Notes: generated by a model from the letters alone, not told the origin. Counted from the first letter of the stretch, positions 1,135 through 11,121 are shown. The stretch is 64,000 bases of DNA from Sulfurimonas sp. (GCA_028044295.1 JAOFSE010000011.1:890-64889); one strand, 5' to 3'. Made by a program: numbers and translations.

Positions 1135-1704
1135 ATGACAATGGATGAACTAAAAGACTATCTTAAAGAAGGTTTTTCAGAAGATAATAAGAACAAAGCT
1201 GCCAAAGTAAAAGACACGAGTGCGACTGATAAGAAAAATATTGAACTGGCAAAACTTTATGAAGATACGGCAGAGTACGAAGCAGAACTAAAAGTTTTTG
1301 AAGAAGAGTTAGAAATTATCAAAGAAAATGAACTCAAAGATATCCCAGCTGAGTTCGCTAAAAAATTTCCTGATGAAGATAGAGATTATGAACAAGAGTT
1401 GCAAAATATCTTATCAGCTACTTGGTCTCACTTAGCAGAGGTTAAAAAAACACACTCATCAGAGTATTTAGAACTTATAACTCAAACACCTTTTTGTGAT
1501 GTTTTAGAAAAATTCAATGCAACATATCCTGAGTATGATAGAAACTTTGAAACTGAGGTAAGAAATATTTTCGTACAAAGATGGGAAACTCTCATTTCAA
1601 TTAAAAAAGAACATATCAAAGAAGAAGAAACCGATATGAAGATAGCAGGTCTAAAACCAAGCTTTGTTAAAAGAATATATAAACAAATACATGGATCAAA
1701 GTAA
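1135..1704 (+). CDS. hypothetical acidic helical protein, 189 aa
   Basis: long ORF, E/K-rich, coiled-coil-like. Confidence 0.75.
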   Translation: MTMDELKDYLKEGFSEDNKNKAAKVKDTSATDKKNIELAKLYEDTAEYEAELKVFEEELEIIKENELKDIPAEFAKKFPDEDRDYEQELQNILSATWSHLAEVKKTHSSEYLELITQTPFCDVLEKFNATYPEYDRNFETEVRNIFVQRWETLISIKKEHIKEEETDMKIAGLKPSFVKRIYKQIHGSK

Positions 1705-1725
1705 ATTATTTATACTTTGATTTAT

Positions 1726-2193
1726 CTATTTTACTTCAAAATTCACTTCATCTAAATCAAAATCTTTTAACTTCTCACTAATCCATTGAGCTACATTAGA
1801 GTCTTCATTAAAGAAGAAGTAAATACTTCCCCCATCCTCATCATTTTTTATAAGTATACTTTCATTGGAATTTGCTTCCCACTCAGCTAAAGATTCATAC
1901 TCTACATACTCTTTTTGCATAACATAGCTCTGTAGTGTTATCTCTTTCTCAAGAGAGTAAAAAAGAAATCTTTTAGAAGAGACATCTTCTACCTTAACAG
2001 GTGTAGGTGAGCTCAAGTGATGAAGTTTGTATCCAAACTCTTCTAACATGTCTAAAAGAAATTCTTTTGACCATGTAAGAACTTGCTTCATACACTTCTT
2101 GGTAGCTGGGTCTGTGTTGTCTCTATCCAAGTATGATGTGTTATAGTCCTTACATATATTACTATAGTCTATTCCAATACCAACTATTTTCAT
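1726..2193 (-). CDS. hypothetical protein, 155 aa
   Basis: ORF starting 1 nt after the MOSC gene stop, probably co-transcribed. Confidence 0.75.
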   Translation of the reverse strand: MKIVGIGIDYSNICKDYNTSYLDRDNTDPATKKCMKQVLTWSKEFLLDMLEEFGYKLHHLSSPTPVKVEDVSSKRFLFYSLEKEITLQSYVMQKEYVEYESLAEWEANSNESILIKNDEDGGSIYFFFNEDSNVAQWISEKLKDFDLDEVNFEVK

Positions 2194-4052: not shown

Positions 4053-4715
4053 ATGAAATTCCTAATTATTGACACAAATAAAAAATACTCCAAACAGATT
4101 CAGAGCTACTTTCAATTAAAAGACATAGCTATTGATGAAGAAAATAGCTATGATAATATCTTAGATAATCAAAAACATATTAACCTTAATAATTATGATG
4201 CTTTTATTTTCTCTATTAGCTATACGGATGCAAGTTCATTAGATATTCTTGATTATATGAAATTAATCAATCTTGATACCCCTGTTATACTTATAGATTA
4301 TGACAACTCAATAGAGTTATGTAGTAAAGGGTTTTCCAGAGGGGCTGAAGACTATTTACATACTCCCTTTGATATAAAAGAGTTAGAGTTGAGAGTTATG
4401 AAGTCAGTTAGGAAAAAGGTCTCCCAACAAGATGAAATTCAACTACCAAATGATTACTCTTACATGTACAGCGACAATGTAGTGTCACATAGACACCTAG
4501 GGATTGATTTAACTAAAAAACAAAAAGCTCTTTTATATCTATTTATGACCCATAAAAATTCTATGGTAACATATGAGATGATTCAAGATTCAGTATATGA
4601 CGGGAAGTTTTTTACAAACAATGCTATAGCAACACATATAAGAGATATAAAGAAGAAAATAAAAGGTATTCCTATTAAGGCCGTGAAGGGTGAAGGGTAT
4701 ATCTTAAAAATCTAA
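4053..4715 (+). CDS. OmpR-family response regulator with atypical (pseudo-)receiver domain
   Basis: receiver-like MKFLIID...GAEDYLHTPFDIKELELR plus winged helix (LTKKQ, VTYEMI, IATHIRDIKKK, KAVKGEGY); start ATG 4053 preferred over 3987. Confidence 0.8.
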   Translation: MKFLIIDTNKKYSKQIQSYFQLKDIAIDEENSYDNILDNQKHINLNNYDAFIFSISYTDASSLDILDYMKLINLDTPVILIDYDNSIELCSKGFSRGAEDYLHTPFDIKELELRVMKSVRKKVSQQDEIQLPNDYSYMYSDNVVSHRHLGIDLTKKQKALLYLFMTHKNSMVTYEMIQDSVYDGKFFTNNAIATHIRDIKKKIKGIPIKAVKGEGYILKI

Positions 4716-4739
4716 GATATACTAATTCTACATGTAGAG

Positions 4740-6701
4740 TTAAATTATTCTATCACTTCCACCGTCTATAGCTACTTGTGAGCCAGTAGTTTTTGAAAAT
4801 GGTTTTCCTGCCATTGCACATACTAATTCTGCAACATCACTTGAACAGATTTCAGTTTTTAGGACATTGTTAGTTTTGTACTCTTGGACTGAAATTCCAT
4901 GAGCTTTTGCACGGTTAGCTAAAACCTCATCAGTCCAGATAGCTGTGTCAAAAACAGCATGAGGATGAAGAGTGTTTACGCGTACTCCAAACTCTCCTAG
5001 TTCAAGAGCTGCTATGCGAGCTAGTTGCGTCTGTCCAGCTTTTGCAACCGAGTAAGCAGCAGCTCCTTTACCTGGTGCTGGAAAGTTTTTAGAAGCTACC
5101 ATAACTATAGCCGAGTCAATTCCCAGTTTCAAAAATGGTGCAGTCTCTTTTATAAGCTTTTGATGTGAAGTAAGATTTATATCCATACTTCTTTGCCAGT
5201 TCTCATCACTTAAAGAGTCTAGATTTTCACTAGGTGTAAATATACCAGCATTTGAAACTACTATATCTATCCCACCAAAACTCTTCACCGCGATAGCTAC
5301 AGCTTCTTGTATATCTTCGCAACATGTAAGATCACATTTTACACCTATCATGTCAGGTTTATTAAAAATGTTTGTTATTTCAGGATTGATATCAAGTGCT
5401 ACTACAGCAGCTCCGCGAGCATTTAACATCTTAGCTATTGCAAGACCGATTCCACTAGCAGCTCCAGTCACTACTGCAATCTTACCGTTAAACTCAGGTG
5501 CACTTCCAGCTTTTTTCAGCTTTGCCTGCTCTAGTGACCAGTACTCAACTTCAAATATATTAGCAGCACTAAGTGCTTTATAGCCACCAAGTTTCTCAGC
5601 TCTTAAAATAGCCTCAAATGTATGATCATTTATATCTTTAATGATATTTGCTTCTTTAGCATTTTTACCAAAAGAGAGAGTTCCACTGTTTTTTAGTATT
5701 GCAAAGTTTGGCGCTGGATTTAGAAGAGTTTCATTTGCTTTATTATCTTCAAAATACTGTTTATAATCTTTTATATAAGACTCTAAATCTGCATTGAAGT
5801 CACTCCCAAAAATTGCAGGAGTTCTTTTAGTTCTTATAACATGGTCAGGTGTAAGTGGACCTCTCGTTGCAATTGTGTCTACATCTGCTTGTGAGAAATT
5901 AACTGCTTCATCACTATCATTTAATATAGATATAGTTGCATGACCTTTTACTTCTGAGATTTTAGCTCTTATTTGTGCTAAGTTCATTAGGTCTACATGT
6001 AGCTCTTGTTTTTGAACATGTAGAGATGCTCCCTTGTCTGCTAAGTACTTCTCAGCCCTGTCTACAAGCTCTATAGTTTTCTCATAAGATTTTTTAGCAT
6101 CATCATTAAAAGTAAAAAGACCATGATTCATAAGAACCATACCTTCTAACTTAGTCCAATCAACATCTCTAGTCATATCATAGATTAGTTTTGCAAGAAC
6201 AAAGCCTGGCATAATGTAAGGGATAATGAGAACTTTATCACCATAAAGCTCTTTTATTTTATCTTCTCCACCCTCTGTATTTGTGATAGTTACAACAGCA
6301 TCAGTATGAGTATGGTCAACAAATTTAAAAGGAATAATTGCATGAAGGATAGCTTCAACAGAAGGGTTTGGAGCTGATGGATTTGTCATAGCAAGTCTTT
6401 GGTACTTAACCATATCTGGATCATTAAGTTCTTTTAGTTCTGCCATCTTTAAAAGCATTTCCATCTTAACAGGAGCAAATCCTTCTCCTTCTATAGTAGC
6501 TAAGTCCCAACCACTACCCTTTACCAGTAGGATGTCTTCCGTATCACCAAAAAGATTAGTTGCAGTAGACTTTACAGATGTATTTCCACCACCATGTAAA
6601 ACTAGAGACGCGTCACGTCCTAGTAGTCGCGATGTATATACTCTTAAATCTAAATCTGTTTTAAACTCTTTTGCTTCATTGTCTTGCCATAAACTTGTCA
6701 T
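4740..6701 (-). CDS. bifunctional class II aldolase / short-chain dehydrogenase (RhaD-SDR, YuxG-like fusion)
   Basis: aldolase motifs GGGNTSVK, SVE, HTH, NHG; SDR motifs TGAASGIG, NAG, YSVAK. Confidence 0.9.
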   Translation of the reverse strand: MTSLWQDNEAKEFKTDLDLRVYTSRLLGRDASLVLHGGGNTSVKSTATNLFGDTEDILLVKGSGWDLATIEGEGFAPVKMEMLLKMAELKELNDPDMVKYQRLAMTNPSAPNPSVEAILHAIIPFKFVDHTHTDAVVTITNTEGGEDKIKELYGDKVLIIPYIMPGFVLAKLIYDMTRDVDWTKLEGMVLMNHGLFTFNDDAKKSYEKTIELVDRAEKYLADKGASLHVQKQELHVDLMNLAQIRAKISEVKGHATISILNDSDEAVNFSQADVDTIATRGPLTPDHVIRTKRTPAIFGSDFNADLESYIKDYKQYFEDNKANETLLNPAPNFAILKNSGTLSFGKNAKEANIIKDINDHTFEAILRAEKLGGYKALSAANIFEVEYWSLEQAKLKKAGSAPEFNGKIAVVTGAASGIGLAIAKMLNARGAAVVALDINPEITNIFNKPDMIGVKCDLTCCEDIQEAVAIAVKSFGGIDIVVSNAGIFTPSENLDSLSDENWQRSMDINLTSHQKLIKETAPFLKLGIDSAIVMVASKNFPAPGKGAAAYSVAKAGQTQLARIAALELGEFGVRVNTLHPHAVFDTAIWTDEVLANRAKAHGISVQEYKTNNVLKTEICSSDVAELVCAMAGKPFSKTTGSQVAIDGGSDRII

Positions 6702-6705
6702 ACTA

Positions 6706-7776
6706 TTAGCCTCTAAATTTTTCTTGAATTTTATCGAAGTCTGCCTCGCAAACTCCTTTGTTTGTAATAAGTCCAGTTATTAACCTAGCTGGTGTTACAT
6801 CAAACCCATAATTAATAGCCGGTGAGTCTTTTGGAGTTATAAGAACTTCTCGTACAACTCCATCACTATCTACACCTCTCATATACTTAACCTCATCTTC
6901 ACTTCTTAACTCAATTGGTATCTCTTTTACACCATCTCTTATATCAAAGTCAAAAGTAGAAGCTGGAATAGCTACATAAAAAGGCACATCATTGTCATCA
7001 GCAGCTAATGCCTTTAAATAAGTTCCTATCTTGTTTGCTACATCACCATTAGCCGATACTCTATCAGCTCCAACTATTACCATATCTACTTCACCACTTT
7101 GCATTAGATGTCCACCAGTATTGTCAGCTATGATAGTATGATTTACACCACTTTGAGTGAGTTCCCAAGCAGTAAGAGATGCACCTTGGTTTCTAGGACG
7201 AGTCTCATCAACCCATACATGTACATCTATTCCACGGCGAAGTGCTTCATAGATAGGAGCGAGTGCAGTTCCTTCATCTATAACAGCTAACCATCCAGCA
7301 TTACAATGCGTTAAAATATTTATCTTCTTCTTATTTTTTTCTACCAATATACGCTCAATAATATTACATCCGTACTCGGCTATTTTTTGACTTTCTAAAG
7401 CCTCGTCATTATTAAGTTTTATCGCATATAGCTTTGAATCATTTACTAAATCAGTTGAATCCTTTAAAAGCTCCAACATTTTATCAACTGCCCACATAAG
7501 ATTTACTGCTGTTGGACGAGACTCACGAATAAGTAAAGCTTTTTCCTTTAACTTTTCATAGTCATCATCAACTTCCATAGACGCTATGTATATTCCAAAA
7601 GCAGCAACACTTCCTATAACTCCAGCACCACGCACTGTCATATCTTGTATTGCAGTTGCAACTTCTTGTGTAGTTTTTAAAACCTTCGTCTTATACTCAA
7701 ACGGTAGTTTAGTCTGATCTATTACTTCTAATAAACCATCATCATTTAACCATAAAGCTCTATATTTACCTTGCAC
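6706..7776 (-). CDS. mtnA: S-methyl-5-thioribose-1-phosphate isomerase
   Basis: DQTKLP, VRGAG, RPTAVNL, THCNAG, ETRP, GADR, NKIGTY. Confidence 0.95.
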   Translation of the reverse strand: MQGKYRALWLNDDGLLEVIDQTKLPFEYKTKVLKTTQEVATAIQDMTVRGAGVIGSVAAFGIYIASMEVDDDYEKLKEKALLIRESRPTAVNLMWAVDKMLELLKDSTDLVNDSKLYAIKLNNDEALESQKIAEYGCNIIERILVEKNKKKINILTHCNAGWLAVIDEGTALAPIYEALRRGIDVHVWVDETRPRNQGASLTAWELTQSGVNHTIIADNTGGHLMQSGEVDMVIVGADRVSANGDVANKIGTYLKALAADDNDVPFYVAIPASTFDFDIRDGVKEIPIELRSEDEVKYMRGVDSDGVVREVLITPKDSPAINYGFDVTPARLITGLITNKGVCEADFDKIQEKFRG

Positions 7777-8992
7777 TTTTTATAATCTCCAATATCTCAT
7801 CAGTATTCTCAATGCGCTCATAATTCATAACAAACTCTCTTGCAATTCTAAGTGCCATAGCTTCAGCTTCACGTCTTAGAGTTATATCGTTTATACCTCT
7901 AATCTCCTCAACTCCCGCAACACCATAAATTCGTCTCGCTATCTTACAACCAGCAAAACCTACACTGTCTTTGAGAATATTCTTAACAAAATTATTTTTA
8001 TAAGTATCTAATGTTTCAGAATCTAAGTATCCATCTACTAAAAGTGCTGTCTCTTTACTCTCTGCCCAAAATTCTAAGAACTTTTCACTAAATTTTTCTA
8101 GAGTATCTTTTATTACATGTAGAAGCCATTTTTGAAACTCTTCATCTTTTGTAACAATGGAGTGATGTATATAGTTATTTACAAGATTAGCTAGTAATGC
8201 TCCAACATCAAAACCAAATGGTCCAACAAAAGCGAACTCTGGATCAATCACATAAGTCTCATCACTATTTATCATAATAGAGCCTGTATGTAAATCTCCA
8301 TGTAATAATGCATCACTTTGTGTCATGAATGTATACTTTAATCCTAAAACTTTTGCCTTAAACTTTCTATCTGCAAAAAGTTTTTGAGCGTTTTCGTTTG
8401 ATTCTACATTTGCATTATCATTTGTTTCATGTTCCATAAAAGCAAAACTAAAAACCAAATCTTCAGTAAGCTTACACAGTTCAACATTTTGATTAAACTT
8501 TGCCATCAAGTCTCTTTTATCTACACTACTTAGAGATAATGAAGATGTGTAAAAGAGTGTGGCTGCCATGTATGTAGATATGTGTTCTGAGAAGTTTTCG
8601 TACTTGACTCTGTTAATAAGTCCTTCACGCATAATAATATGATTGGACAAATACTCCATAGCAACAAGACTCATCTCTTCACTAGAGTAATATACACGAG
8701 GTACAAAATTTGGAAATATAGAGTAAAACTTATCTAATGCTCTTATCTCATAAGTCATTCTCTCTCGAGAGAGTGGAAACTCTTCACCAACACATCTTAG
8801 ATATGGAACAGCCTGCTTTACTATCATAGATTTTTCTGGGTTATCAATGAGACTTACTAGATAAACAAAATTGAGATTTCCATCGCCAATCTCTTTAGCC
8901 TCTATTTCCTCTGACTCAAAAAAGTTCTTAATCTCTTTGATCTCTAGCAGATACTCAATTACACTGTTTTTATCTAATACTTTGTAGTCCAT
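7766..8992 (-). CDS. mtnK: S-methyl-5-thioribose kinase
   Basis: EIGDGNLNFV, VKQAVPY, LLHGDLHTGS, IDPEFAFVGPFGFDVG. Confidence 0.95.
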   Translation of the reverse strand: MDYKVLDKNSVIEYLLEIKEIKNFFESEEIEAKEIGDGNLNFVYLVSLIDNPEKSMIVKQAVPYLRCVGEEFPLSRERMTYEIRALDKFYSIFPNFVPRVYYSSEEMSLVAMEYLSNHIIMREGLINRVKYENFSEHISTYMAATLFYTSSLSLSSVDKRDLMAKFNQNVELCKLTEDLVFSFAFMEHETNDNANVESNENAQKLFADRKFKAKVLGLKYTFMTQSDALLHGDLHTGSIMINSDETYVIDPEFAFVGPFGFDVGALLANLVNNYIHHSIVTKDEEFQKWLLHVIKDTLEKFSEKFLEFWAESKETALLVDGYLDSETLDTYKNNFVKNILKDSVGFAGCKIARRIYGVAGVEEIRGINDITLRREAEAMALRIAREFVMNYERIENTDEILEIIKSAR

Positions 8993-9007
8993 TGTATATT
9001 CCCAGTT

Positions 9008-9904
9008 TTAATTTAATCTTTCGTAAGCTTCATCAATACTCTTAGCTTTATCAGCTACAAATATATAAATTGCAGCATGAAGCTTTGCTAATTTCAGTAG
9101 TTCATCTGAAGGATTGTTTATTGCATCTAGAGACTCTTCAAGAGTCATCTTATCCCATGTCTTAGTTGAAGTAATGCCATAATACTCAGGGTCTATGATA
9201 AACTCTTCTACTTCTTTACAAGAGTCTGCTATCCATAAATGACCTTTTTTGAAAAGTTCTGGACTACCTTCTGTTCCTTGGATAAGCGCAAATCTTTTAT
9301 ATCTATTTGAGAAAATTTCTACATACTTTTTCACATATGGCTTATGAAACAGCCCTGTAATAGCATAGTCACTACTTGCAACATGAGGAAGCTTCTCGAT
9401 AGTATTTAAACCTGTACGAACTCCAAGCCTCATGCGAAGGTCAGTTAACTCATGCAGTTCATTAAAAAAATCTGCTCTATCATAGTAATGCAGATTAGAA
9501 CCTAAGTCTATTTTTGTACATATGTCTTTTATGGTAATACCTGATTTTGCAGGAGTCAGTTCATCCCCAGAAACAACTAAATTCACATCTGAGTCTTTGA
9601 GTATTTTTGAGACAAGAGGAAATGTATATGGATGTTTTGCTTTTCCATCAAATGAGTAGCCAAGTTCTATAGAATTTTCAATTTTTGTCTTTGTTATAAA
9701 AGAGTCACAAGCTTCTAGTGCTCCTATATACTCCTCTATAGTTTCAGGTTTTAATCTCCATCCAAGTAAAAAAGCGGATATTTGTTCCCCATGAACAGAC
9801 TGATTGAGGATTTGAGTCATCATATCTTGTGATTCTTCAAAAGTTAAATCTCTGTTACCCTTAGGTCCAGTTCCAACTGCTTTTATATACTTCTTAAAAT
9901 CCAT
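9008..9904 (-). CDS. glycosyltransferase family 3 / TrpD-like protein (YbiB type)
   Basis: YIKAVGTGPKGNRDL, QISAFLLGWRLK, GLFH.PY, QGTEGSPE patterns typical of YbiB. Confidence 0.75.
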   Translation of the reverse strand: MDFKKYIKAVGTGPKGNRDLTFEESQDMMTQILNQSVHGEQISAFLLGWRLKPETIEEYIGALEACDSFITKTKIENSIELGYSFDGKAKHPYTFPLVSKILKDSDVNLVVSGDELTPAKSGITIKDICTKIDLGSNLHYYDRADFFNELHELTDLRMRLGVRTGLNTIEKLPHVASSDYAITGLFHKPYVKKYVEIFSNRYKRFALIQGTEGSPELFKKGHLWIADSCKEVEEFIIDPEYYGITSTKTWDKMTLEESLDAINNPSDELLKLAKLHAAIYIFVADKAKSIDEAYERLN

Positions 9905-9906
9905 CT

Positions 9907-11121
9907 TTAAACCTTAGATTTTTGTATCTGATCAACCATCTTTACAACAACCAAATCAGAAGTCACATTTATGGATGTTCTTGCCATATCTAAAATTCTA
10001 TCAACTGCAACTATTAATGCGATGTACTCTACTGGAAGACCTATTTGGTTCAGTATTACTACCATCATCACAAGAGATGCACTAGGAAGTGCTGCAACAC
10101 CAACACTCAGTGCGACAACCGTAATCCCTAGTAGAACTTGATCCATAAAACTAAGGTCCACTCCAGCTAAATGAGAGATATATAAAACAGCTATTGTAAG
10201 ATAAGCTGCCGTTCCATCCATAGATACAGTTGCACCTAGTGGAAGAACAAATGAAGCATGCTTTTTACTCACTCCGCCTGCTTCTTCCACGATACGCATA
10301 GATACAGGAAGTGTAGCTGCACTTGATGCTGTGGAAAATGCCATAATAGGGGCTTCACGGACATCTGATATATACTTATATGGATTTATTCTTCCTATAA
10401 GTCCTAAGACTGTTGGGAGTGTAACAAAGGCGTGAATTACTAAAACTGTGATAACCATAAGCACATATTTCCATAATCCTAAAACCACGTCTATACCCTG
10501 GTCTGCTATAACATAAGATATGAGAGAGAATACACCAATTGGTGTCAGTTTTATAATCCACTCTGCCATAGTTAGCATAGCGTTTGTGACTCCCGTAAAG
10601 AACTCTAACATCAAAGCTTGTCTATCTACATGTAGATGCATAGAAGCAATCGCAAAAAGAATGGCAAAAACTATAATCTGCATCATAGCACCATCTGATA
10701 ATGAAGCAAAAATATTTGTCGGAATGAAACTAAGTATCATAGCCTGAAGTGAAAAAGGTGCAATAGCTGAAGCCTTCGCATACTCCAAACCCTCAGATGA
10801 TACAGCTTCACCTATCGGAGCAATATTCATAGCTATTATTGCCAAAAGTACAGCTAAAGCTGTAGTAAGAAGATAGAGTCCTATAGTTCTAAGACCTATA
10901 GTTTTTAAATCGTTAAGACTTCCCAACCCCATGATAGCAATATAAATACTTGAGAAAACAAGAGGAACAACTAACATTTTTAAAAAGCTTATAAAGATTT
11001 GGCCAATGACCTGTTGTTTTAGAGCTAATTCTGGTAAAAAACTACCAAATAATACTCCAAAAATAATTCCTAAAATAACTAGAGTATTTGTAGTGGAGTA
11101 CTTTTTGAAAGTATCAATCAT
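9907..11121 (-). CDS. dicarboxylate/amino acid:cation symporter (DAACS)
   Basis: AFSTASSAATLP, LPLGATVSMDG, AVDRILDMARTSINV. Confidence 0.95.
   Translation of the reverse strand: MIDTFKKYSTTNTLVILGIIFGVLFGSFLPELALKQQVIGQIFISFLKMLVVPLVFSSIYIAIMGLGSLNDLKTIGLRTIGLYLLTTALAVLLAIIAMNIAPIGEAVSSEGLEYAKASAIAPFSLQAMILSFIPTNIFASLSDGAMMQIIVFAILFAIASMHLHVDRQALMLEFFTGVTNAMLTMAEWIIKLTPIGVFSLISYVIADQGIDVVLGLWKYVLMVITVLVIHAFVTLPTVLGLIGRINPYKYISDVREAPIMAFSTASSAATLPVSMRIVEEAGGVSKKHASFVLPLGATVSMDGTAAYLTIAVLYISHLAGVDLSFMDQVLLGITVVALSVGVAALPSASLVMMVVILNQIGLPVEYIALIVAVDRILDMARTSINVTSDLVVVKMVDQIQKSKV

Follow-up and report, generated by a model that had tools for sequence, protein, structure and literature searches.

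An mtnK-mtnA-aldolase/dehydrogenase fusion cluster in Sulfurimonas: a probable variant of the DHAP shunt

We analysed a 64,000-nucleotide stretch of DNA from Sulfurimonas sp. (the window), in which three genes follow one another on the minus strand. The first, mtnK (7766..8992), encodes a 5-methylthioribose/5-deoxyribose kinase of 408 aa, which in a profile search scored 486.7 bits against the S-methyl-5-thioribose kinase profile TIGR01767 (cut-off 275) and matched Pfam APH. The second, mtnA (6706..7776), has a GTG start and encodes a (5-methylthio/5-deoxy)ribose-1-phosphate isomerase of 356 aa, assigned by TIGR00512 (412.2 bits, cut-off 279) and NF004326 (432 bits). The third (4740..6701) encodes a 653-aa protein in which a class II aldolase, a middle domain and an NAD-type SDR are fused. 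The stop codon of mtnK (7768-7766) lies inside mtnA, which begins at 7776, giving an overlap of 11 nt, and the mtnA stop codon (TAA, 6708-6706) is separated by 4 nt (tagt) from the ATG of the fusion gene at 6701. The ORFs, profiles and motifs thus bore out the original prediction of an mtnK-mtnA overlap followed 4 nt downstream by an aldolase fused to an intact SDR. Scans for promoters and terminators at this locus returned nothing above chance, and co-transcription is suggested by the 11-nt overlap together with the short spacer of 4 nt. The three genes probably form a single translationally coupled unit.

The fusion is a full-length member of NCBIfam NF006196 ("bifunctional aldolase/short-chain dehydrogenase"; PRK08324.2-4), scoring 1027.8 bits (cut-off 831) across residues 1-653; this family is named but uncharacterised, and has no assigned substrate or pathway. 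Pfam assigned residues 21-219 to Aldolase_II and residues 407-590 to adh_short, and an AlphaFold2 model of the whole protein had a mean pLDDT of 88.9 and a pTM of 0.87. The aldolase domain (residues 1-225; 6027..6701, minus strand) scored 191 bits against the aldolase domain at the N-terminus of a Thermoplasma homologue (PDB 3m4r). It contains the phosphate loop GGGNTS (37-42), E116 as general acid/base and metal ligand, and the metal ligands H130, H132 and H193, all of which are invariant across 91 homologues. The middle domain (residues 226-400; 5502..6026, minus strand) had no Pfam match and was folded confidently in the AlphaFold2 model. It is specific to the "long aldolase" family, including stand-alone relatives of 391 aa, and its invariant residues include R245, D286, H287 and K292. 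The SDR domain (residues 401-653 plus the stop codon; 4740..5501, minus strand) was recognised by adh_short, by its motifs and by structural matches to classical SDRs. Its motifs are all present (TGAASGIG 412-419, D437, NAG 484-486, N509, S537, Y550 and K554), so that, judged from sequence, the catalytic motifs of both halves are intact; D437 points to NAD(H), not NADPH, as the likely cofactor. Furthermore, the substrate-loop residues K538, H579, R597, Y608, K609, N612 and R651 do not vary across 73 fusions whose gene contexts differ widely.

The original prediction had described the fusion as rhamnose-type. This holds at the level of homology: the fusion is homologous over its full length to RhaEW/YuxG (TIGR02632), with the same three-part architecture, equal catalytic motifs and an aldolase and SDR in one polypeptide. 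It does not hold in the strict sense: the fusion scored 443.7 bits against TIGR02632, below the equivalog cut-off of 567.75, and belongs to the separate NF006196. RhaEW of Chloroflexus, the assayed relative, converts rhamnulose-1-P to DHAP and lactate with NAD+ but not with NADH, and forms neither DHAP nor lactate when NAD+ is omitted (PMC3870299). In RhaEW, and by prediction in the fusion, a deoxy-ketose-1-phosphate yields DHAP and a second product that ends as an acid via NAD+; however, the predicted substrates of the fusion are C5 sugars, whereas those of RhaEW are C6. Their surroundings also differ. RhaEW orthologues were reported always within rha loci (rhaA, rhaB, rhaM) (PMC3870299), whereas the fusion neighbours mtnK-mtnA, plus lsrK, an ABM-fold gene and metK in relatives.

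The source genome is 94% complete, and absences from it count as "not found". MtnB, enolase-phosphatase (MtnC), ARD (MtnD), RuBisCO-like protein and RhaA were not found in it; the original prediction, which had noted a window free of mtnB, mtnW/X, mtnC, mtnD and rhamnose genes and had proposed looking for mtnBCD and rha genes beyond it, therefore held for the window and extended to the 94% of the genome available. The class II aldolase family is represented by only two genes in this genome, neither of which is MtnB. By tblastn no small aldolase (Ald2-like or FucA-like) was detected, and there was no PF01791 match that would mark an aldolase of the DeoC/LsrF type. On the supply side, the genome encodes an MTA/SAH nucleosidase (G000:C32:70083-70751; NF004079 285.7 bits, cut-off 169; TIGR01704 173 bits), LuxS, and a spermidine synthase, from which we conclude that MTA is made.

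We compared 401 Campylobacterota genomes, which are related, so that the counts overstate independence; mtnK exceeded its cut-off in 22 of them. The full fusion was present in 9 of these 22, and a small aldolase in none of the 9; in 8 of them the fusion and mtnK shared a strand and were ~1.1 kb apart. A small aldolase stood beside mtnK-mtnA in another 11 of the 22, none of which carried the fusion. In 10 of those 11 genomes the adjoining gene encoded an Ald2-like aldolase of 202-218 aa, and in the eleventh it encoded a FucA-like aldolase, in the cluster mtnK-ABC-mtnA-GntR-aldolase. In no mtnK-bearing genome did the fusion coexist with a small Ald2-like aldolase; the two were strict alternatives. 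It is likely, on this pattern, that the fusion replaced the small Ald2/DrdA-type aldolase that trails mtnK-mtnA in other Campylobacterota.

Gene order was also conserved. Of the Campylobacterota-type loci, 28 had a flank that was informative; mtnA was directly upstream of the fusion in 24 of these, and mtnK was present as well in 23. The same order was found in two Deinococcales loci, with all three genes above NCBIfam cut-offs and the linked fusion again a member of NF006196 (971.5 bits); the synteny proposed as a check in the original prediction is thus kept in Sulfurimonas and recurs in Deinococcales. The fusion lay away from mtnKA in four Campylobacterota loci (L046, L048, L055 and L111), and in one genome (G277) the two were on separate contigs. 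A prediction concerning unlinked copies was upheld: three genomes with a full fusion unlinked to mtnKA carried an mtnK-mtnA pair at another site, where it had no aldolase as a neighbour, and two genomes with truncated SDR remnants were without mtnK. The remnants formed a decay series, in which a 623-aa form lacked the Tyr-Lys segment of the SDR and forms of 571 and 576 aa lacked the Gly motif, NAG and YxxxK. Throughout this series the residues of the aldolase were invariant, and SDR decay was confined to genomes without mtnK. In the wider family, the gene also occurs in unrelated contexts: in Saprospiraceae its neighbour is PEP_hydrolase/UPF0261, and in Steroidobacter it is D-lyxose isomerase.

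A second association, missed in the original prediction, involves LsrK. In the 401 Campylobacterota genomes, the long aldolase was found in 49 of the 50 with LsrK and in 0 of the other 351, and 32 of these 49 were without mtnK. LsrK of the source genome (G000:C31:10152-11714) scored 885 bits against NF008187 and 667 bits against the LsrK structure PDB 5ya0, and lsrK is adjoined by a gene for a 95-aa ABM-fold protein with a faint similarity to LsrG (21 bits to 2gff) and no NCBIfam match. Trios of ABM, a 391-aa aldolase and LsrK were seen, as was, among some Sulfurimonas, a merged cluster, ABM-lsrK-mtnK-mtnA-(771-aa gene)-fusion-metK (L058), with similar arrangements in three further loci (L040, L051 and L081). 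In the Lsr pathway of E. coli and Salmonella, LsrK (kinase), LsrG (isomerase) and LsrF (a CoA-dependent thiolase of the DeoC family) act on AI-2. A true LsrK orthologue is common to both systems and DHAP would be expected as a product here too, but the ABM-fold protein stands where LsrG would, LsrK is accompanied by a class II aldolase-type protein in place of LsrF, the loci read contained no transporter or LsrR, and metK is in the cluster. For the last step of its LsrK and ABM-isomerase route, this genome offers no candidate but the aldolase half of the fusion. Because the long aldolase tracks LsrK and the clusters merge, it probably also ends the disposal of the signal molecule AI-2 (DPD), the LuxS by-product, as a second job; there the substrate would be the diketone phosphate in its hydrated form, and cleavage to DHAP and acetate would need no dehydrogenase. 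The tie to LsrK, ABM and MetK may be an older or a second job of the aldolase.

Taken together, we consider it likely that the fusion supplies the aldolase activity in a variant of the DHAP shunt, one that clears ribose units remaining after S-adenosylmethionine has been used. In this pathway, MTA/SAH nucleosidase would free 5-methylthioribose from MTA and 5-deoxyribose from 5'-deoxyadenosine, MtnK would phosphorylate both sugars at C1, and MtnA would convert the sugar-1-phosphates to ketose-1-phosphates. The class II aldolase domain would then cleave these to DHAP and 2-methylthioacetaldehyde or acetaldehyde, and the fused NAD-dependent SDR would dispose of the aldehyde, most likely, by analogy with RhaEW, through oxidation to methylthioacetate or acetate. 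The sequences show the identities of the genes, the intact motifs, the synteny, the phyletic patterns and the decay of the SDR domain; from there on, the substrates and products, the direction of cofactor use and the sharing of the enzyme by both routes are inferred. Every comparative test run was consistent with the central claim of the original prediction, that an MtnK/MtnA-fed route of the DHAP-shunt type uses the fusion as its aldolase and has the dehydrogenase tied to it; the evidence lies in the either/or relation with small aldolases, the synteny, the MtnB/C/D and rhamnose genes not found, and the pattern of SDR decay. Against it stand the unlinked loci described above, the activity on rhamnulose-1-P of the only characterised relatives, and an aldolase that is not an orthologue of Ald2/DrdA.

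DHAP shunts or 5-deoxyribose disposal pathways are known from Rhodospirillum rubrum, extraintestinal E. coli and Bacillus thuringiensis, and comprise either MtnN with MtnK or else MtnP, followed by MtnA/DrdI and Ald2/DrdA (EC 4.1.2.62). The Sulfurimonas locus resembles them in its orthologous kinase and isomerase, the latter in the same operon, in the presence of the nucleosidase, in a metal-dependent class II aldolase with an intact His3/Glu site directly next in the operon, in the MtnB/C/D route not found, and in the predicted products, DHAP plus a C2 unit. It differs in that the known aldolases are FucA-like proteins of ~215 aa, whereas this one is a 400-aa long aldolase from another branch, covalently joined to an NAD-type SDR and also tied to LsrK. 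In the known shunts, removal of the aldehyde falls to separate enzymes, in part unidentified (PMC13474568). The mtnK-mtnA-aldolase/SDR arrangement is probably a new form of a known pathway, and we found no description of it in the literature that could be searched.

The order of the two fused activities might conceivably be reversed, although we think this unlikely. Acting first, the SDR would oxidise 5-deoxy- or 5-methylthio-ribulose-1-P at its C4 hydroxyl, giving a 2,4-diketo-3-hydroxy phosphate (from the 5-deoxy sugar, P-HPD, which is also what AI-2 becomes through LsrK and the ABM isomerase), and the "aldolase" would cleave this by retro-Claisen hydrolysis to DHAP and acetate or methylthioacetate. 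There would be no free aldehyde, the aldolase would meet one type of substrate in all contexts, and the SDR would be an adaptor for the products of MtnK and MtnA. Such an order would fit a single long aldolase per genome serving both gene clusters and an SDR retained only alongside mtnK; secondary-alcohol oxidation is usual SDR chemistry, and the NAD+ requirement of RhaEW for DHAP and lactate formation (PMC3870299) is directly predicted, the products being identical under both orders. However, no residue of the canonical catalytic set of aldolases has been lost, and Ald2, the enzyme displaced, is a genuine aldolase. An enzyme of that kind could take the P-HPD hydrate too, so that shared use does not require oxidation first. 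The invariant basic and polar SDR-loop residues would fit binding of a constant phosphate end but could lie at a domain interface, and aldehyde-oxidising SDRs exist, TsaC (PDB 8sy8) being among the sequence matches of the fusion.

Reduction of the aldehyde is less probable still. The SDR would use NADH to form 2-methylthioethanol or ethanol, as in R. rubrum and aerobic E. coli; characterised DHAP shunts do terminate in alcohols, the enzyme for that step in them is unidentified (PMC13474568; PMC10986504), and SDRs are commonly reversible. Nevertheless, Chloroflexus RhaEW, the only assayed relative, was inactive with NADH (PMC3870299), and D437 favours NAD(H) over NADPH.

We regard it as very improbable that the fusion is confined to AI-2 disposal with LsrK and ABM, or to some other sugar phosphate, with a location behind mtnK-mtnA that is functionally meaningless and with MtnK/MtnA products that are handled otherwise or excreted. 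The co-occurrence with LsrK is tighter than that with mtnK, and the wider family has its unrelated contexts in Saprospiraceae and Steroidobacter, but the exclusion between fusion and small aldolase, the close spacing to mtnA, the gene order shared with Deinococcales and the decay of the SDR exactly where mtnK is missing all argue otherwise. A rhamnulose-1-phosphate aldolase/lactaldehyde dehydrogenase (RhaD/RhaEW) for rhamnose use is effectively refuted by gene context, despite the JGI label "rhamnose utilization protein RhaD" on close homologues and real family-level homology to RhaEW, given the sub-cut-off TIGR02632 score, the RhaA not found in this genome, the annotated neighbours of related loci, which show no rhamnose isomerase or kinase, and the reported confinement of RhaEW orthologues to rha loci.

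The retro-Claisen reaction, unlikely as we think it, would carry a wider meaning: the three by-products of S-adenosylmethionine use that derive from ribose would all leave through the one fusion enzyme. DPD derived from S-ribosylhomocysteine would enter via LuxS, LsrK and the ABM isomerase, and 5-methylthioribose and 5-deoxyribose via MtnK and MtnA. Because the fused SDR would oxidise C4 of the MtnA products, the routes would meet at one 2,4-diketo-3-hydroxy-pentose phosphate, which the aldolase domain, as a C-C hydrolase, would convert to DHAP and an acid with no free aldehyde. If this is true, the published RhaEW reaction, in which no DHAP appears without NAD+, would need equal reinterpretation.

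The three genes lie on the reverse strand. mtnK, for S-methyl-5-thioribose kinase (7766-8992), and mtnA (6706-7776) both exceeded their family cut-offs (TIGR01767, 486.7 bits against 275; TIGR00512, 412.2 bits against 279). The third gene (4740-6701) encodes a 653-aa fusion protein that matched NCBIfam NF006196, named 'bifunctional aldolase/short-chain dehydrogenase', over its full length (1027.8 bits; cut-off 831), with a class II aldolase at residues 21-219 and a classical short-chain dehydrogenase (SDR) at residues 407-648. When the junctions were read from the sequence, the mtnK stop was positioned 11 nt inside mtnA, and the mtnA stop was followed after 4 nt by the ATG of the fusion. The original prediction of overlapping mtnK and mtnA, with an aldolase fused to an intact SDR 4 nt further on, was thus borne out in every detail. 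Promoter and terminator scans of positions 4300-10200 returned the same counts as shuffled sequence and were uninformative; the gene spacing suggests that the three genes may be co-transcribed. A TrpD2/YbiB-like glycosyltransferase-family-3 gene (9008-9904, reverse strand) stops 16 nt short of mtnK, in the window's genome only. As a candidate for the pathway's nucleoside phosphorylase it was rejected on neighbourhood comparison: it lies ~5 kb upstream, with unrelated genes between, in four relatives (G245, G295, G393 and G304), and the G213 locus lacks it. This gene is probably outside the mtnK-mtnA-fusion unit.

Both halves of the fusion are intact. The aldolase half retains the phosphate loop GGGNTS (37-42), Glu116 (catalytic and metal-binding), His130, His132 and His193, and its catalytic residues were invariant in 91 of 91 aligned homologues. 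The SDR half retains TGAASGIG (412-419), Asp437, which predicts a preference for NAD, the NAG motif, Asn509, Ser537, Tyr550 and Lys554. An AlphaFold2 model of the fusion was confident (pLDDT 88.9, pTM 0.87). The cultured species Sulfurimonas gotlandica, S. lithotrophica and S. crateris have counterparts of the fusion at 84-86% identity. Sequence and fold searches of the PDB found no full-length relative, the matches being generic SDRs and 3m4r, an uncharacterised N-terminal domain of a Thermoplasma homologue that is the sole solved relative of the aldolase half; the middle domain had no match among the top rows of these searches.

We next considered the rest of the genome (assembly of 1.91 Mb, 94% complete). 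It encodes an MTA/SAH nucleosidase (NF004079, 285.7 bits; cut-off 169), LuxS and spermidine synthase, the last of which means that MTA is produced. The original prediction called for a genome-wide check for mtnBCD and rha genes; no acireductone dioxygenase, enolase-phosphatase, RuBisCO-like protein, rhamnose isomerase (RhaA) or match to an MtnB model was found in this 94%-complete genome. Its only other class II aldolase-family gene lies beside dnaJ (contig C32, G000:C32:14242-14769; 1477-2067, forward strand, in locus L001) and encodes a 196-aa member of the uncharacterised family PRK05834. We rejected the reading of this protein as a hidden MtnB or Ald2, since it matched PRK05834 alone and no MtnB model.

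To compare operons, we screened 401 Campylobacterota genomes for mtnK, small aldolases and members of the fusion family; the sampled genomes are related, and the counts that follow overstate independence. mtnK exceeded its cut-off in 22 genomes; the mtnK-like genes of G130 and G216 were weaker. Nine of the 22 carried a full-length fusion (seven Sulfurimonas, including the window's genome, one other genus of the family and one other family), and in eight of these nine the fusion and mtnK shared a strand and lay ~1.1 kb apart, a distance that corresponds to mtnA in length. A small aldolase was found in none of the nine. In ten further mtnK genomes, from eight genera, a class II aldolase of 202-218 aa, far under the MtnB cut-off, came after mtnK-mtnA, and one had mtnK, an ABC transporter, mtnA, GntR and a FucA-like aldolase; the fusion was found in none of these 11. 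Such a clean either/or at one operon position looks like non-orthologous displacement, and the comparative data show a pattern in which the fusion appears to have cleanly displaced Ald2 among these chemolithoautotrophs.

The synteny expected by the original prediction was recovered in an independent set of 80 named loci. mtnA lay just upstream of the fusion in 24 of the 28 Campylobacterota-type loci with enough upstream sequence, accompanied by mtnK in 23. The order mtnK-mtnA-fusion was also present in two Deinococcales loci, with all three proteins above NCBIfam cut-offs (fusion, NF006196, 971.5 bits), and mtnA was no more than a few genes away from the fusion in one Neomarinimicrobiota, one Zetaproteobacteria and one other proteobacterial locus. 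In several Sulfurimonas, mtnA and the fusion are separated by an inserted 771-aa NIT-PAS-HD-GYP sensor/phosphodiesterase gene (L058:4532-6847; also L032, L040 and L059), and in another genus mtnA is parted from the small aldolase by a response-regulator-PAS-HD-GYP gene (L015:3097-4905, reverse strand). These insertions hint that regulation of the operon may be linked to c-di-GMP or nitrate.

The dehydrogenase half provided a prediction that could fail. Full fusions occur away from mtnKA at three loci (L046, L048 and L111) and shortened proteins at two (L055 and L083); if the SDR serves the MtnK/MtnA branch, mtnK should be kept in the former genomes and missing in the latter. mtnK was detected at 461-493 bits in the three genomes with full fusions, none of which had its own aldolase near mtnK-mtnA, and was not found in the two with shortened proteins. 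Two further carriers of remnant forms (G350 and G267) also lacked mtnK. A strict dependence of the SDR on adjacency to mtnKA was wrong, as these three full fusions lie elsewhere; the SDR instead tracks whether the genome has mtnK. Three decay forms (L055:7001-8872; L020:5803-7518, reverse strand; L083:1534-3264) display stepwise loss: a 623-aa form retains the glycine motif and NAG without the Tyr-Lys segment and substrate loop, and no SDR motif is left in the forms of 571 and 576 aa. All of these forms have intact aldolase residues. At the Arcobacteraceae locus L048 (6042-10542), gpsA, the fusion and lsrK occur in order, with mtnK-mtnA elsewhere in the genome; gpsA encodes NAD-dependent glycerol-3-phosphate dehydrogenase, a user of DHAP.

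A stand-alone 391-aa protein that shares 51-55% identity with the first 400 residues of the fusion was present in ~38 sampled genomes, and in every locus read it lay between or beside a 95-aa ABM-fold gene and a 520-aa FGGY kinase gene. This kinase matched the LsrK structure 5ya0 over its full length at 667 bits (next kinase, 113 bits), which identifies it by homology as a true LsrK. lsrK was found in 50 of the 401 genomes, and a long aldolase (fused, remnant or stand-alone) in 49, all within those 50 and in 0 of the 351 others; the exception was a fragmentary assembly in which lsrK was cut by a contig end. In most other Campylobacterota the cluster is a trio of ABM gene, 391-aa long class II aldolase and lsrK (related loci L004-L010, L016, L023 and L114). 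The window's genome has an ABM-fold gene (7715-8002), lsrK (6150-7712) and metK (4874-6073), all on the reverse strand of locus L025 (contig C31), a different contig from the fusion. No aldolase lies beside this lsrK and no DeoC/LsrF-type enzyme was found in the genome, which leaves the fusion as the sole candidate for the last step of the LsrK route. Other Sulfurimonas have merged clusters, ABM-lsrK-mtnK-mtnA-(771-aa sensor gene)-fusion-metK at L058 and ABM-metK-mtnK-mtnA-fusion-aldolase441-lsrK at L081, with similar clusters at L040 and L051. ABM, long aldolase and LsrK together form a candidate CoA-independent route of AI-2/DPD breakdown. At a Helicobacteraceae locus (L120:6053-8446, reverse strand), mtnK-mtnA come directly after a MetK-like gene (41% identity to Sulfurimonas MetK), another gene link between SAM synthesis and by-product salvage.

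A quick, unrooted maximum-likelihood tree built from the aldolase part (91 rows) placed the stand-alone 391-aa clade (support 100) inside the fusion radiation as sister to the Campylobacterota fusion clade (support 94, not starred), and nested the remnant forms (support 95) within the Sulfurimonas fusions. The direction of SDR change is inferred: wherever the root falls, as long as it is not within the stem of the stand-alone clade, the SDR would have been lost at least twice, on both occasions in lineages or genomes that lack a fusion-dependent mtnKA.

We infer every step of the following chemistry. The nucleosidase would release 5-methylthioribose and 5-deoxyribose, which MtnK and MtnA would convert to ketose-1-phosphates. 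The aldolase domain would cleave these to DHAP and methylthioacetaldehyde or acetaldehyde, and the SDR would oxidise the aldehyde with NAD+, by analogy with RhaEW, which converts rhamnulose-1-P and NAD+ to DHAP and lactate and is inactive with NADH (PMC3870299). In the AI-2 branch, LsrK and the ABM isomerase would yield a 3-hydroxy-2,4-diketone phosphate, whose hydrate carries OH in place of H at C4 and otherwise matches 5-deoxyribulose-1-P. The same aldolase site could cut this hydrate to DHAP and acetate with no leftover aldehyde, which would account for the SDR being dispensable when LsrK alone is present. The main alternative reverses the order, with the SDR oxidising C4 of the MtnA products to the same diketone and the 'aldolase' acting as a C-C hydrolase. 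This fits one aldolase shared by the MtnK/MtnA and LsrK routes, the failure of RhaEW to release DHAP without NAD+ (PMC3870299) and a set of basic residues that stay invariant on the substrate loop of the SDR across very different gene contexts; however, none of these discriminates firmly, and we consider the reversed order unlikely. The fused aldolase is most likely the predicted aldolase step for the MtnK/MtnA products, as originally proposed, a role supported by the either/or pattern, the synteny and the mtnK-tracking SDR.

The proposed route works like the DHAP shunt (MtnK-MtnA-Ald2) and has the kinase, isomerase and nucleosidase in common with it. It differs in having an aldolase that is fused to a dehydrogenase and is not orthologous to Ald2/DrdA. 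The fusion is built in the same way as RhaEW but fails both the family score test (TIGR02632, 443.7 bits; cut-off 567.75) and the gene-context test; in the strict sense it is not the 'rhamnose-type fusion' of the original prediction. The wider family appears from its gene neighbourhoods to be functionally mixed, serving several unassigned sugar-phosphate routes. Partners are PEP_hydrolase-like and UPF0261 genes in Saprospiraceae (L066:9010-11103), and a ribulose-phosphate-3-epimerase (RPE)-like gene, D-lyxose isomerase and an MFS sugar transporter in Steroidobacter (L101:6303-12242). According to a 2026 review, the enzyme that reduces the aldehyde in the DHAP shunt is still unknown (PMC13474568). 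In the literature searched, with most subscription journals outside the search, no paper placed a RhaEW-type fusion in MTA/5'-deoxyadenosine salvage or connected LsrK with a class II aldolase. What the window adds is the displacement of Ald2 in an either/or pattern, the stepwise decay of the SDR, the near-perfect co-occurrence with LsrK and the merged lsrK-mtnKA-fusion-metK clusters.

MTA and 5'-deoxyadenosine inhibit the enzymes that produce them, and therefore every cell needs a route for their removal. The DHAP shunt, which E. coli K-12 does not have, is the known oxygen-independent route, whose aldehyde-handling step is still unassigned in the organisms studied (PMC13474568). The fusion is a concrete candidate for this step, with an aldolase and an aldehyde- or alcohol-level redox step in one protein, in a group of chemolithoautotrophs important in sulfidic waters. 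Because LsrK, the ABM isomerase and MetK are tied to the fusion, the data suggest that disposal of AI-2/DPD and of the MTA/5'-deoxyadenosine sugars forms one module for salvage of SAM by-products, which is relevant to the question of whether Campylobacterota use LuxS/AI-2 for metabolism rather than for signalling. Assignment of the fusion to SAM by-product salvage would also correct the widespread mis-annotation 'rhamnose utilization protein RhaD'.
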